Positions 3,497-62,621 of a DNA stretch of 64,000 bases are shown here, in pieces. The notes under the pieces were generated by a model, which was not told where the DNA came from, searched no databases, and was given only the letters and a program-made list of their open reading frames with translations. The position numbers and the translations under genes are program-made. Positions within the stretch are counted from its first letter, which is position 1, and the number at the start of each line of letters is the position of its first letter. The stretch is from positions 141,861-205,860 of the forward strand of contig CAZWIT010000001.1 of the NCBI GenBank assembly GCA_964633905.1. The letters run 5' to 3'. The stretch comes from an uncultured Gammaproteobacteria bacterium. Its GTDB lineage: Bacteria > Patescibacteriota > Patescibacteriia > UBA1558 > GWA2-36-10.

Positions 3497-3571
3497 TCCG
3501 GGGTAGTTGAGTGGTACAACGCCGCGCTGTTAACGCGGATATCGCAGGTTCGATCCCTGCCCCCGGAGCCA
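3497..3571 (+). tRNA. tRNA-Asn (anticodon GTT)
   Basis: Cloverleaf read by eye: acceptor TCCGGGG/CCCCGGA, anticodon stem CCGCG/CGCGG with loop CTGTTAA, T-arm GCAGGTTCGATCCCTGC, 3' CCA encoded. Confidence 0.85.
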
Positions 3572-3573
3572 TT

Positions 3574-3606
3574 AAAAAAATACAAACGAAGGTTTGTATT
3601 TTTTTA
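3574..3606 (+). terminator. intrinsic terminator after tRNA-Asn
   Basis: aatacaaacGAAGgtttgtatt hairpin followed by T-run. Confidence 0.5.
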
Positions 3607-3696
3607 ATCTTGGCGGAGTGCGGAAAATTATTTTTCATTCCAAATTTTCTGCCGGAGCTAATTAATTATAAATAGTAGTTAAAGATAAAACATATC

Positions 3697-26854: not shown

Positions 26855-26907
26855 TTGATATTATGGTTATTAATTTAAAAACCGCCTTAAGTTTGGCGGT
26901 TTTTATT

Positions 26908-49334: not shown

Positions 49335-49547
49335 TATCATATATATGAAGACTAAGAGTCGAAATTGATTTGATAGGAAAAGTATGATCGTTGGCGAACG
49401 ATTTTCTGCAGCTTAAAGTTTAAGCAATAGAAATTCGTTCACCACGTTATCTCTTTTCCCCAATCAAACATATTTCTAAGACACTTAGTCTTCTTCCTTT
49501 TATATAAGTTTATTAAAAATCGCCACAATGGCGATTTTTTATTTTAG
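49335..49547 (+). ncRNA. candidate rod-shaped small RNA (long imperfect hairpin) ending in a bidirectional terminator
   Basis: TTGACC-N16-TATCAT at 49303-49330; 5' gaagactaagagtcgaaattgatttgatagg pairs imperfectly with 3' ccaatcaaac...cttagtcttc; terminator aaaaatcgccacaatggcgatttttt. Confidence 0.25.
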
Positions 49548-53370: not shown

Positions 53371-53449
53371 AATAACCAAATAGCTCAGCTAATTGGCTGA
53401 GCTATTTAAATATGCTAAAATTATAATATAAATTTTTAAGTATAAAAAT

Positions 53450-54115
53450 ATGTCAAATTTTGAAACAGCTAGCTCTACTCAAAATCAAGAATTTGGAGCT
53501 GATGTCTTATTAGACCAGTATGCGGAATTACTGGCTGGTAGAGAAGAAAAAGATATTGAGGACAAGGCAACTTTAGCAGAGTTATCAAGGCTTAAGGCTG
53601 CTATACTTTTGGCTCAATCAACGGCTAAAAAAATTGACAAAGAATTAAGTTGGGCCGGAACCAGGGCCAAGGAGGGCATTGCTTTAACACAAGAATCAGT
53701 AAAAGCTACAAAAGTAGATGATGTTAAATTAGCTTGGGAAAAATCTGATCCAGATGCTAACATTAACGCCATGATGGATCATTTAGAGAATCGAGAGCGA
53801 GCAAGACAAAGAGAAATGAATGATGTTCGTATAAAAATTAATTCAATTTTTCGCGAGATTACAGAAACAAGGCGTAAGATTTTAGAAGAGATTTTGCCAT
53901 ACTGTAAAAATGAATATAAACTGGGCATTGAAAATAGCTTGTCTAGATTAATGGATGAAATAGTTCAGCTTAATGAAGATTTAAACCATGACTCATGGGA
54001 AAGTAGTTTTGGCATAGAACAAGCTCAAGAATATGCTCAAGAATTTGGAGTCTTAAGCAGCCAAATGAAGACTTTGTATGAAGACAGTTTGGATGATTTA
54101 ACAGATTTAGACTAA
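53450..54115 (+). CDS. hypothetical acidic coiled-coil protein
   Basis: 221-aa ORF. Confidence 0.5.
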   Translation: MSNFETASSTQNQEFGADVLLDQYAELLAGREEKDIEDKATLAELSRLKAAILLAQSTAKKIDKELSWAGTRAKEGIALTQESVKATKVDDVKLAWEKSDPDANINAMMDHLENRERARQREMNDVRIKINSIFREITETRRKILEEILPYCKNEYKLGIENSLSRLMDEIVQLNEDLNHDSWESSFGIEQAQEYAQEFGVLSSQMKTLYEDSLDDLTDLD

Positions 54116-54164
54116 AGTAAGCCCCGTACTTGTTACGGGGTTTTTGTTATTAAGATTTAATATA

Positions 54165-54193
54165 TTGACATTTTATCATTTTTTTGTTATAGT
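54165..54193 (+). promoter_or_regulatory. consensus promoter TTGACA-N17-TATAGT driving element R1
   Basis: TTGACA 54165-54170, TATAGT 54188-54193. Confidence 0.5.
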
Positions 54194-54199
54194 CCTATA

Positions 54200-54550
54200 T
54201 CAGTACATTAAATCGGAGGGCTCCCTATGGGACCATGGAATAAAGGGCAGCCTTCTGCTCAATATGTCCTGGCTCTAATGAGCCCTCCTGCAAGCGCGGC
54301 CTAGAGAAGCATATCGCTTTTCGGCCGCAAGAGGCGACGCATCGTCGCCTGTGGCACTCTGCCACCGCTTCTTCGGTAAGCGAGAGACTGAAGCGTATAG
54401 CACCCCGTAGGAGAAGTTCCTGGTGAGGATTACCAGGACTGACCGCGTGCGGTGAGGTAGCCAACGATAAGGGCCGAAGGTGGGGACATGACTAAGGTTG
54501 AAGTAAGGACTAACACTTACTAGACTAAAAGTTTCTCCCCACTTTTTTAT
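54200..54550 (+). ncRNA. unclassified GC-rich structured RNA R1 (about 350 nt)
   Basis: At least 7 perfect hairpins (for example GGCGACGcatCGTCGCC, GTGGCActcTGCCAC, CCTGGTgaggattACCAGG); long-range GGAGGGCTC/GAGCCCTCC pairing; promoter plus terminal GGGGA...TCCCC-TTTTTT; GC far above flanks. Confidence 0.45.
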
Positions 54551-54575
54551 TTTGTTTAAAAATATGGTAAAATAT

Positions 54576-54598
54576 ACCCATAAAAATTTTTTATGGGT
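54576..54598 (+). promoter_or_regulatory. perfect 11-bp inverted repeat ACCCATAAAAA-t-TTTTTATGGGT spanning the hydB start codon
   Basis: Direct reading; ATG 54593 lies in the 3' arm. Confidence 0.35.
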
Positions 54599-55567
54599 AT
54601 TGATATTATTAATCAATTAAAAAGTGCTAATTTGTTGGGTAGAGGTGGAGCAGCCTTTCCTACTTGGCAAAAATGGGAATTGGTTAAAAATTTTAAATCT
54701 GATAAAAAATACATTGTAGCCAATGGTTCTGAGGGTGAACCTGGTACTTTGAAAGATGGCTATATTTTAGCTAACTATCCAGAACAATTAATTACTGGTA
54801 TCAAGATTGCTTTAGAAACAATTGATCATTCAGAAGCCTTTATTTTTTTGAATAAACAATATTTTCGCCAACATAAAGAACGTTTAACTAAATTAATTGG
54901 AAAATTACCAATTACTATTTTTGAAGAGCAGGGCGGCTATTTGTCTGGCGAAGAAACTATGATTTGCCAGGAAATTGAAAAGTCATTATTAAGGCCAAGG
55001 CAAAAACCACCTTTTACTGCTCAAGTTGGAATTTGGGGAAAGCCGACTTTAATTAATAATATTGAAACTTTTTACTATGTAGCTAAAATTGCAACTGCTG
55101 AGTACAAGCAAACTAGATTTTATTCTATTTCTGGTGATATTCCTTATGCTGGTGTTTATGAATTTCCACTTGCTTGGGATATAAACAAAGTGTTACTGGA
55201 AAGTAATAATTGGCCGCAAGGAGATTTTTTTGTTAGTGTTGGCGGTGGTGCTAGCGGTGAGATTTTGCTGGCGCATGAATTGCATCGACCTACGCCTGGC
55301 GGTGGAGTGATTGTGGTTTATGATAAAAAACACACTGATCCTTATCAGCTTTTAGTAAAGTGGGCTGATTTTTTTATTGCGGAAAATTGTGATAAATGTA
55401 CGCCTTGTCGGGAGGGTATTTATCGTTTGCGTGAAATGTTTAAAACACGCAATCTTGATAAAAAAACTATGGCTGAGTTGATTTTTATTTTAGAAAATAC
55501 TAGTTTTTGCCCTTTGGGTAAGATGGCGGCTTTGCCTTTTAAAACTTTAGTTAGTAAATTATTATGA
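54593..55567 (+). CDS. hydB: [FeFe]-hydrogenase-associated flavoprotein subunit (NuoF/HydB-like, NADH- and FMN-binding, 4Fe-4S)
   Basis: 324 aa; GRGGAAFPT, CDKCTPCREG motifs of NuoF family; translationally coupled to hydA. Confidence 0.75.
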   Translation: MGIDIINQLKSANLLGRGGAAFPTWQKWELVKNFKSDKKYIVANGSEGEPGTLKDGYILANYPEQLITGIKIALETIDHSEAFIFLNKQYFRQHKERLTKLIGKLPITIFEEQGGYLSGEETMICQEIEKSLLRPRQKPPFTAQVGIWGKPTLINNIETFYYVAKIATAEYKQTRFYSISGDIPYAGVYEFPLAWDINKVLLESNNWPQGDFFVSVGGGASGEILLAHELHRPTPGGGVIVVYDKKHTDPYQLLVKWADFFIAENCDKCTPCREGIYRLREMFKTRNLDKKTMAELIFILENTSFCPLGKMAALPFKTLVSKLL

Positions 55568-57282
55568 CTAGTTTTCATATAAAAATTAATGGTAAAGATT
55601 GCCTAGCTCAAGAAGGGCAAACAATTTTAGCAGTAGCAAAAATAAATAATATTAATATTCCAACTCTTTGCTATCATCCAGATATCAAGGTTCAAGCTAG
55701 CTGTCGTTTATGTGTGGTGGAGATCAAAGGCAAAAACGGTATGTTTACTGCTTGTTCTACCCAAATAGCAGACGGCATGGAAATTCAAACAGATACACCG
55801 TCTATTAGACTAGCACGTTTAAATAATTTACAACTTATTTTTTCTGAACATTGCGAAGAATGTAATGATTGTATTTTAAAACAAAAATGTTTAATCAAGA
55901 GTTTAGCTAAAGAATACCGGGTGCCAATTACTAAATTTCCCGATCGTAAAAAAGGTTTTCCAGTGCACCAATTTGGGCCAGCTCTACAATTTGATAGCTC
56001 TAAATGTGTTGATTGTGGTTTATGCGTTGATATGTGTAATCAACAAGTCGGATTTTTGGAATACAAAAAAAGAGGGGATTTTTGGGAAGTATGTCCGTCT
56101 GACAAAAAAGATAAAGATTGCATTTATTGTGGACAGTGCTTAACGCATTGCCCAGTTGGTGCTTTTGAAGCAATTGGCGAGTTTGAAGACGTAGATTTGC
56201 CCTTACGTGATAAAACTAAGACAGTTGTTTTTCAATTTGCGCCTTCAATTCGAGCAGCTATTGGTGAAGAATTTGATTTGCCATATGGTTCAGTGGTTAC
56301 TGGGCAGTTAGTAGCCGCTATTAAACAATTAGGCATAAAGCATGTTTTTGATGTTAGTGTTGGCGCTGATGTGACTACTATGGAAGAAGCTGAAGAGTTA
56401 GTTGAGCGGATTAAAACCGGTGGGAAACTGCCAATGTTTACTGCCTGTTGCCCTTCTTGGGTAAAATACATGGAATTTTTTGAACCTAAATTAGTACCGT
56501 ATTTAACAACAGTGCGTTCACCACAAATTATTATGGGTGGTCTGATCAAAACTTATTGGGCGCAAAAACAAGGTATTAATCCAAAAAATATTACTGTTGT
56601 TTCAGTTATGCCTTGTGTGGCCAAAAAATACGAAATTGAAAGACCAGAATTTAAAATTAAAGGTATCAAGCCAGTTGATTATGTAATGACAACTAGAGAA
56701 TTGGCTTGGTTATTTAAGAAAAATAACATTGATTTAAAAGATATTAAGCCAGCAGAGCTTGATCCAGCTTTGGGTATTCCAACTGGGGCCGGTGTGATTT
56801 ATGGTGCTTCTGGCGGCGTGATGGAATCAGCTTTGCGTACTGCTTATTTTAAATTAACTGGAGAAAGATTGGCTAATGTTGAATTTAAAGCAGTGCGCGG
56901 CTTAGAAGGTTTTAAAGAGGCAGAGGTAAAAATTGGCGAGCGAACAATTAAAGTGGCAGTTGTTAACCAAATGTCCAATGGCAAAAAGATTTTAGAAGAG
57001 CTAGCTAAAGATCCTCATAAATATGATTATATTGAAGTAATGTCTTGTCCGGGTGGTTGTATTGGTGGAGGCGGGCAACCAGTGCCAGTAAATGCTGAAA
57101 TTAGAAAAAAACGGGCGCAGGCTTTGTATGATATTGATGCTAGTAAAGATATTCGTCGCGCTGAAGATAGTGTGATTGTCAAGACCTTGTATCAAGAATT
57201 TTTAGCTGATCATAAAAATGTTCACCAGATAGCTCACACTAAATACAGTCCTAAGAAAAAAGAGGTTTACCCCGTCAAATAA
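55564..57282 (+). CDS. hydA: [FeFe] hydrogenase catalytic subunit with N-terminal 2Fe-2S and 4Fe-4S domains
   Basis: 572 aa; H-cluster motifs TACCPSW, MPCVAKKYE, EVMSCPGGCIGGGGQP. Confidence 0.9.
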   Translation: MTSFHIKINGKDCLAQEGQTILAVAKINNINIPTLCYHPDIKVQASCRLCVVEIKGKNGMFTACSTQIADGMEIQTDTPSIRLARLNNLQLIFSEHCEECNDCILKQKCLIKSLAKEYRVPITKFPDRKKGFPVHQFGPALQFDSSKCVDCGLCVDMCNQQVGFLEYKKRGDFWEVCPSDKKDKDCIYCGQCLTHCPVGAFEAIGEFEDVDLPLRDKTKTVVFQFAPSIRAAIGEEFDLPYGSVVTGQLVAAIKQLGIKHVFDVSVGADVTTMEEAEELVERIKTGGKLPMFTACCPSWVKYMEFFEPKLVPYLTTVRSPQIIMGGLIKTYWAQKQGINPKNITVVSVMPCVAKKYEIERPEFKIKGIKPVDYVMTTRELAWLFKKNNIDLKDIKPAELDPALGIPTGAGVIYGASGGVMESALRTAYFKLTGERLANVEFKAVRGLEGFKEAEVKIGERTIKVAVVNQMSNGKKILEELAKDPHKYDYIEVMSCPGGCIGGGGQPVPVNAEIRKKRAQALYDIDASKDIRRAEDSVIVKTLYQEFLADHKNVHQIAHTKYSPKKKEVYPVK

Positions 57283-57299
57283 AAATTAATAAATTTTTT

Positions 57300-57815
57300 A
57301 TGGATAATATTAGAGCCATAGCTGTAGATAAAGTTAAAACTAATTCTTTAGCTACTTGGGTTTCGATTTTAGGCATTGCTTTAGTGGCGCCACTTTTTCC
57401 TTTGCAACAAGTAACTGGGCCAATTATTAATGCCTTGTTATTTATTGCTGTAGTTATGTTGGGTTTAAAACAAAGCTTACCAATTTGTTTTATACCAAGC
57501 GTGATGGCATTACTAGCAGGCTTATTATTGCCGGTAATGATACCGATTGTGCCTTTTATAATGCTGTCGAATGTTGTTTTAGTAGTAAGTTTTTCTTATT
57601 TTTATCAGAAAAATTTTTGGCTAGGTATTGCTATAGCAAGCGCTGTTAAATTTATTTTTATTTGGAGCACTACTTCGGCCATTGCTAATTTATTTATAAA
57701 AACACCGGCGATTGTAAATAAAGTAGCGCAATTGATGAGCTGGCCACAGTTATTTAGTGCTTTACTAGGAGGCTTGCTTGCTTATGCTTTTTTAAAGTTT
57801 ATTAAACGCATTTAA
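57300..57815 (+). CDS. hypothetical polytopic membrane protein
   Basis: 171 aa, 5-6 TM. Confidence 0.5.
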   Translation: MDNIRAIAVDKVKTNSLATWVSILGIALVAPLFPLQQVTGPIINALLFIAVVMLGLKQSLPICFIPSVMALLAGLLLPVMIPIVPFIMLSNVVLVVSFSYFYQKNFWLGIAIASAVKFIFIWSTTSAIANLFIKTPAIVNKVAQLMSWPQLFSALLGGLLAYAFLKFIKRI

Positions 57816-57929
57816 TTTTGATATTTTATTATTTTTTTAAATAGCCTTTACAAAAGGCTATTTTGTTGTTTATAATTATTCTTTATTGTTATTTCCCAGT
57901 TTGAGTTGGACCCTTACAAGGAGGTTGTG

Positions 57930-62504: not shown

Positions 62505-62621
62505 AATATATTGTTCTTCACAATTTTTTACCAACAACAAACATGCTGTTTGTTGTTAAACCTGGACAAGTTGAGAAAGGGTGGTGTTCTCGTGTTGTTT
62601 GAAGAAAACAAAAGGTTTGCA

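Follow-up and report, generated by a model that had tools for sequence, protein, structure and literature searches.

Introduction

Why should the start codon of a hydrogenase gene lie inside a perfect inverted repeat? The question is raised by a locus in a 64-kb stretch of DNA (the window, by which we mean the whole stretch that was analysed), in which the operon hydB-hydA follows a gene for a structured RNA and the hydB ATG is enclosed in one arm of such a repeat (Table 1). A preliminary description of this DNA read the repeat in two ways, as an mRNA hairpin that occludes the start codon and would gate translation and as an ideal operator for a dimeric repressor, and it suggested that the operon is under coupled control with the terminator of the upstream RNA (R1). 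A further arrangement is known from insertion sequences. According to the statement in PMC13181058 that cites Davis, Simons & Kleckner (1985), IS10 folds back externally initiated transcripts, and in IS200 a start-occluding stem-loop sequesters the translation signals in impinging transcripts (PMC3196728). In this study, we examined the sequence, its conservation in relatives, its position with respect to the hydB promoter and its predicted folding, and we weighed these arrangements against one another.

Table 1. Positions of the hydrogenase genes, the upstream RNA gene and the control elements at the hydB start in the window
Feature	Coordinates	Strand	Remarks
Near-consensus sigma-70-type promoter of the RNA gene, TTGACA-17-TATAGT with upstream TG	54165..54193	+	11/12 matches
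Unannotated structured RNA gene, ~354 nt, 55–57% GC	54199..54552	+	Presumed source of read-through
Long terminal hairpin followed by U6AU4, probable intrinsic terminator	54476..54552	+	−28.1 kcal/mol, z −3.8
Extended −10 element of hydB, TGGTAAAAT	54565..54573	+	Adjoins the left arm; best-conserved intergenic block
Perfect inverted repeat, ATACCCATAAAAA-T-TTTTTATGGGTAT	54574..54600	.	13-nt arms, 1-nt spacer, 100% complementary
Predicted transcription start, A	54580	+	C-1 A+1 T+2, 7 nt after the −10 hexamer, inside the left arm
hydB, NuoF-like FMN/NADH subunit, 324 aa	54593..55567	+	Complex1_51K and NADH_4Fe-4S domains
hydA, [FeFe]-hydrogenase catalytic subunit, 572 aa	55564..57282	+	Start overlaps the hydB stop by 4 nt

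Results

Sequence and rarity of the palindrome

The hydB start codon is credible, since the first Met of HydB falls no more than four residues from that of 28 aligned homologs. HydB homologs also place the sequence in Patescibacteria/Parcubacteria. The preliminary description had located a perfect 11-bp palindrome at 54576–54598, which in the window sequence, read directly, is ACCCATAAAAATTTTTTATGGGT, with the hydB ATG in its 3′ arm. This was confirmed, and the arms proved to be two pairs longer on each side, extending over 13 nt at 54574–54586 and 54588–54600. The ATG occupies 54593–54595, and the right arm takes in codons 1–3 of hydB. The identical palindrome sequence was also recovered in assemblies made independently from other samples (L001 and L002) and is thus not an assembly artefact.

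The rarity of such a structure was estimated with 100 dinucleotide-preserving shuffles of the window, in which perfect inverted repeats with loops of up to 8 nt were counted. Two repeats in the window have arms of 13 nt or more, compared with 0.02 expected per shuffle, and seven have arms of 11 nt or more, compared with 0.49. Other perfect inverted repeats, with arms of 11–17 nt, are located at 3571–3608, 26876–26905, 49515–49539, 53378–53407, 57839–57863 and 62533–62557. Except for the one at hydB, the perfect repeats of at least 11 nt resemble (bidirectional) terminators with a G+C core and A/T runs outside, and the 17-nt repeat lies directly 3′ of tRNA-Asn. The hydB palindrome is reversed in build with respect to these terminator-like repeats: its G/C pairs are near the base and its A/T pairs are in the middle. 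Rfam searches over the palindrome returned only weak matches at the level of chance, e.g., RsaE with 19.7 bits (threshold, 79). Inspection by eye for a minus-strand ORF or promoter within the palindrome gave a sole candidate, an 18-codon ORF, for which no support was found.

Concerted changes of the two arms in close relatives

Comparison with orthologous loci (designated by L numbers) revealed four distinct versions of the palindrome, all in the closest relatives, whose HydB proteins are at least 81% identical. In the window, the arms pair as CCC/GGG and codon 2 of hydB encodes Gly. L006/L007 (HydB 96% identical) have ATATCCATAAAAA-A-TTTTTATGGGTAT, in which the single arm difference, TCC/GGG, corresponds to a U.G pair in RNA. 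In L106, which was retrieved via the upstream 221-aa protein, the sequence is ATACTCATAAAAATTTTTATGAGTAT, a perfect 13+13 repeat without a spacer; codon 2 is AGT (Ser) in place of GGT (Gly), the left arm has CTC in place of CCC, and the arms pair as CTC/GAG. L004 (HydB 81% identical) has GGCATAAAA-TT-TTTTATGCC with CCA (Pro) as codon 2 and GGC in the left arm (GGC/GCC). Between the window and L106, the region from −200 to −20 is 98% identical and the coding sequence 88% identical, and the left arm differs at a single base, exactly the one that pairs with the changed base of codon 2. The window, L006 and L106 share the A/T core, the CAT and the outer ATA. CAT and ATG are separated by 11 nt in L006, as in the window, and by 10 nt in L106 and L004.

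When the four versions were scored for covariation, 96% of the cells were paired and two pairs were changed on both sides (three cells), and sliding the partner by 1–3 columns lowered the pairing to 37–57%. The covariation score was reached by 13 of 500 shuffles, a statistic that is weak because the versions are only four in number and related to one another. The concerted arm changes, the tolerance of a 1-nt difference in spacing and the occurrence of G.U at imperfect positions favour base pairing over recognition by a sequence-specific protein. As judged from these alignments, the arms have evolved as paired strands would, and the compensatory substitutions among four distinct sequences, albeit a small sample, are of the kind by which a conserved RNA secondary structure is recognized.

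The palindrome is not common to all relatives. The preliminary description had named its absence from orthologous hydB upstream regions as evidence against its proposal, and the distribution is divided in this respect: the closest relatives have the palindrome, whereas it is lacking in L105, L003 and L005, all of which have the same RNA gene, terminator and −10 element, and in approximately 70 more distant Parcubacteria orthologs. Its absence from L105, L005 and L003 indicates that it is dispensable. L105 (HydB 79% identical) has ATAGCTAGTAATTTTTTTATGCC in its place, and in L005 (74%) the ATG lies 10 nt after the −10 element. A gene for a class-I aminoacyl-tRNA synthetase lies between the promoter and hydB in L003 (78%), a locus that L008 and L025 also represent. 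This inserted gene (L003 2950–4000) is of the tRNA-synt_1b (TyrRS/TrpRS) type and follows the conserved TGGTAAAAT, and hydB starts 3 nt past its stop codon. The L003 sequence after the −10 element, ATATACACCATAAAAAG, still resembles the left arm while the right arm is missing, so that part of the constraint on the left arm may come from a role as discriminator and initial transcribed sequence. A scan of genome contigs for close relatives returned one only, which is the same place as L003, and with the N-terminal 113 residues of HydB as the query only distant fragments were retrieved.

Position of the hydB promoter and predicted transcription start

The stretch between the U-run of the RNA gene and the palindrome, AAATATGGTAAAATAT, includes the extended −10 element of hydB. 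Within it, AATATGGTAAAATA is invariant in seven of seven clade members, with flanks that are only 58–69% identical in the more distant ones. The −10 hexamer TAAAAT ends at 54573, and the C-A-T that follows in the left arm matches the pyrimidine-purine-pyrimidine "start element" that is reported to set start sites across bacteria (PMC12641261). From these two features, we infer that hydB transcription starts at A54580; an A is found at the start-site distance from the −10 element in all clade members. TGnTAwAAT-type −10 elements lie 6–9 nt before the ATG in 38 of 72 distinct upstream regions of hydB orthologs from metagenomes. This recurrence is a further reason to take TAAAAT as the −10 hexamer and A54580 as the start, and the short distance suggests that hydB is normally leaderless or nearly leaderless in Parcubacteria. 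A weaker −10-like hexamer, TATGGT, was seen by inspection at 54563–54568, overlapping the extended −10 element.

Other genes in the window have a similar organization. Five leaderless-looking genes (at 105, 4888, 22021, 49907 and 60916) have exactly 6 nt between a TATAAT-like hexamer and the ATG, and Shine-Dalgarno sequences are almost absent upstream of the 47 long ORFs. An anti-Shine-Dalgarno motif occurs in only 48% of Parcubacteria 16S rRNAs, and one subgroup often lacks it (PMC9297842). With Shine-Dalgarno sequences nearly absent, the accessibility of the start site should dominate initiation.

Accessibility of the hydB start codon

As RNA, the palindrome is predicted to fold into a hairpin of 12 pairs and a 3-nt loop (−12.0 kcal/mol, z −2.8). 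When one RNA contains both arms, the probability that the AUG is unpaired is 0.0007, against a median of 0.57, and the minimum free energy of the region from −30 to +30 is −14.3 kcal/mol; both values are the lowest of the 47 genes in the window. Across 75 distinct orthologous start regions, the palindrome versions of L106, L006 and L004 had the least accessible AUG codons, occupying ranks 1–3. The occlusion of the start codon claimed in the preliminary description thus holds wherever both arms are part of one RNA.

The gating of translation that was derived from this occlusion fares less well. A transcript from 54580 has a 13-nt AU-rich leader that contains neither a Shine-Dalgarno sequence nor the ATACCC that pairs with GGGTAT. 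Its predicted fold does not include the hairpin (−3.8 kcal/mol, z −0.6), and the probability that the AUG is unpaired is 0.71. Because a start at A54580 deprives hydB's own mRNA of the G/C part of the left arm, the hairpin would not be formed in it and, on this folding model, probably does not gate the main hydB mRNA.

The structured RNA gene upstream of hydB

The RNA gene ends 22 nt before the palindrome, and its long, non-canonical hairpin and U-run intervene as a probable terminator. Its GC content is 55–57%, compared with 34% for the window. The promoter is conserved in L106, L004, L003 and L005, and an equivalent terminal hairpin with a U-run is found in L004 and L005. The 354-nt RNA folds at −147 kcal/mol (z −6.3 against shuffles), and compensatory changes were found at 21 of 64 consensus pairs across five homologs. 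The 98% identity to L106 noted above for the region from −200 to −20 concerns a portion of this RNA gene and exceeds the 88% of the adjoining coding sequence. Searches against Rfam 15 gave no match for this RNA, even at E ≤10 on 54100–54700, and nothing at gathering thresholds on the window or the 19+4 loci; ARAGORN detected no tmRNA. The 354-nt RNA is probably a new RNA class.

Its distribution was examined with nhmmer and with a 62-position covariance model built from four sequences. Among 87 loci, the RNA was limited to the close clade (L106, L004, L003, L005, L105 and L006/L007), a range that may be too narrow, since distant homologs may have been missed by so small a model. Compared with the palindrome, a small feature restricted to one clade, the structured RNA gene is probably the more valuable lead.

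A different hairpin at the hydB start in another clade

In L090–L093, an unrelated 12-bp hairpin, AAUUUUAUAAUG / CAUUGUAAAAUU, lies at the hydB start and overlaps the −10 box. It extends from approximately 12 nt before the ATG to 20 nt past it (e.g., L092 1484–1512). The AUG is in the 5′ arm and is unpaired with a probability of 0.003–0.1. The variants of this hairpin differ by changes from G-C to G.U and from U.G to U-A. An ORF of 55 aa in the same direction ends shortly before the hairpin and has no terminator. The imperfect helix positions, one in L006/L007 and two in L090–L093, are G.U on the sense strand in three of three cases.

Discussion

Proposed insulation of hydB from read-through transcription

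We propose, at a probability of roughly 0.35, that the palindrome serves as an IS10-like fold-back device that insulates hydB from read-through transcripts. The RNA hairpin would bury the hydB AUG only in transcripts begun upstream of the hydB promoter, and such transcripts would arise by read-through from the strongly promoted structured-RNA gene. The native hydB mRNA, starting at A54580 and thus without the C-rich half of the 5′ arm, would stay translatable. Hydrogenase synthesis would then track the hydB promoter and not the adjoining RNA gene, which may be the selective benefit. This proposal is tentative; its attraction is that it reconciles two findings that are otherwise at odds, namely, that the arms pair in evolution and yet that half of the 5′ arm is missing from the predicted native mRNA, by confining the hairpin to transcripts that enter from upstream. 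The hairpin of the same geometry in L090–L093 lends some support to it. The conserved promoter between the terminator and the palindrome argues against the coupled control with R1 suggested earlier, and insulation fits this arrangement better. On the other hand, the terminator, with its −28 kcal/mol hairpin and U-run, may be efficient and leave little read-through to insulate against.

As in IS10/Tn10, the start codon lies in one arm of an inverted repeat; the predicted transcription start inside the 5′ arm, by which only outside transcripts would fold, and the putative read-through from directly upstream would be further parallels. The proposed device differs from IS10/Tn10 in that it belongs to a cellular hydrogenase operon and not to a transposase gene, that the outside transcription would come from a fixed adjoining RNA gene, and that the palindrome pairs the AUG only and involves no Shine-Dalgarno sequence. 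If the proposal is correct, a streamlined Patescibacteria genome uses the transposon-style overlap of a promoter and a start-codon arm to insulate a packed operon, and the locus would be one case of how adjacent units are kept independent despite scarce Shine-Dalgarno sequences, leaderless mRNAs and short spacers.

A possible neutral quasi-palindrome

It is possible, although on balance doubtful, that the palindrome is a neutral or nearly neutral DNA quasi-palindrome, which arose by an inverted-copy (template-switch) event and is kept perfect by the same mechanism. Quasi-palindromes are hotspots of template-switch mutation in E. coli (PMC7202029), and template switching can copy a change from arm to arm without selection; the concerted change of the arms can also be produced by such correction. 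The hydB palindrome resembles these hotspots in being an inverted repeat with a short spacer whose arms change together, and its complementarity is perfect through the centre, including inner pairs that are impossible in an RNA hairpin. Its patchy, clade-restricted distribution with losses in L105, L005 and L003, as well as the existence of an imperfect intermediate in L006/L007, would also be expected. Moreover, eight of the 13 pairs are expected anyway, as the CAT of the start element is complementary to ATG and the A-run and T-run reflect an AU-rich leader.

However, template switching at a hotspot is a mutational process and not a function, and it explains the perfection of the arms but not the bias toward G.U on the sense strand. 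This bias, which a DNA-only process does not predict, weighs weakly against neutrality, as does the occlusion of the AUG, the most extreme among the 47 genes, which would be costly if long transcripts matter. The independent evolution of a different hairpin with the same geometry in the L090–L093 clade also counts against a neutral origin.

A possible operator for a dimeric repressor

The operator of the preliminary description, at which a dimeric repressor bound to the dyad would block RNA polymerase at the hydB promoter, is unlikely. Its position is the part of the claim that stands: the perfect dyad covers approximately −6 to +21 of the promoter, as in symmetric operators of the lac O1 type, adjoins the −10 element and includes the predicted transcription start, a classic location for a repressor. 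The bases common to the window, L006 and L106 (outer ATA, CAT and A/T core) and the left-arm-like sequence kept after the −10 element in L003 are also compatible with protein binding.

In contrast to operators of the lac O1 type, however, the half-sites covary, two positions being changed in both arms together (CCC, CTC and GGC; TCC also occurs), and the distance between CAT and ATG shifts by 1 bp. The recurrence of the palindrome elsewhere, which the preliminary description had raised, was not observed: no second copy was found in the 64-kb window with up to three mismatches allowed, and a half-site search in the window with up to one mismatch returned the palindrome itself and matches at the level of chance. 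No regulator was identified, and Pfam scans of five small or unknown operon neighbours revealed no DNA-binding domain. Natural operators are usually shorter-armed and less perfect than this palindrome. To our knowledge, none of the consensus sequences of Rex, Fur, IscR type 2, CodY, CRP/FNR, LexA and CIRCE fits ACCCAT-N10/11-ATGGGT.

A possible gate on the principal hydB mRNA

Covariation and occlusion of the AUG would also be accounted for if the hairpin acted on the principal hydB mRNA, as a thermometer-like or factor-opened sequestor or as a 5′-terminal stabilising stem-loop. We consider this quite unlikely. The hexamer TATGGT would give a start at approximately 54574–54576, at the 5′ end of the hairpin, but it has neither a TG extension nor a −35 element, and the TGnTAwAAT pattern of the orthologs points to TAAAAT and a start at A54580. 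In addition, no factor that would open the hairpin was identified, and at −12 kcal/mol a permanently closed stem would simply shut down an operon that in all other respects is intact and conserved. The palindrome does resemble RNA thermometers (fourU/ROSE) and the sequestor stems of riboswitches in that an AU-rich stem pairs the initiation region. However, those elements are contained entirely in the mRNA and sequester the Shine-Dalgarno sequence by pairing, whereas the 5′ arm of the palindrome is probably outside the native mRNA, and the palindrome has no Shine-Dalgarno sequence, no alternative pairing and no identified sensor.

Other readings

It is improbable to a high degree that the RNA, its terminator and the palindrome form one new, large riboswitch-like leader that senses a redox or hydrogenase signal and controls hydBA by termination and start-codon sequestration in passing transcripts: the terminator and the palindrome are separated by a perfectly conserved promoter, the aminoacyl-tRNA synthetase gene separates the RNA from hydB in L003, and the RNA was not detected upstream of the more distant hydB orthologs. 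A back-up intrinsic terminator for the upstream RNA gene is scarcely credible; although a pattern scan flags 54574–54600 as terminator-like with 12 pairs and the tail TGATATTATT, we reject this reading because the stem is AU-rich (three of 12 pairs are G-C) and the tail, UGAUAUUAUU, which is not a real U-tract, is not conserved (AGCAGACAUU in L004), and the site lies within the start of a coding sequence.

Composition of the hydrogenase locus

The hydrogenase locus (54593–57282) comprises only the short NuoF-like subunit of 324 aa and HydA. In the window, L001, L003 and L004, hydBA has no NuoE-like (HydC) gene beside it. Compared with the trimeric bifurcating HydABC enzymes, a two-subunit hydBA locus without an adjacent HydC gene is unusual. 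The next gene, at 57300–57815 (+), encodes a 171-aa membrane protein with a weak match to the S component of ECF transporters (E 1.5e-4, below the Pfam cut-off), and this protein is also encoded directly downstream of hydA in L001, L003 and L004.
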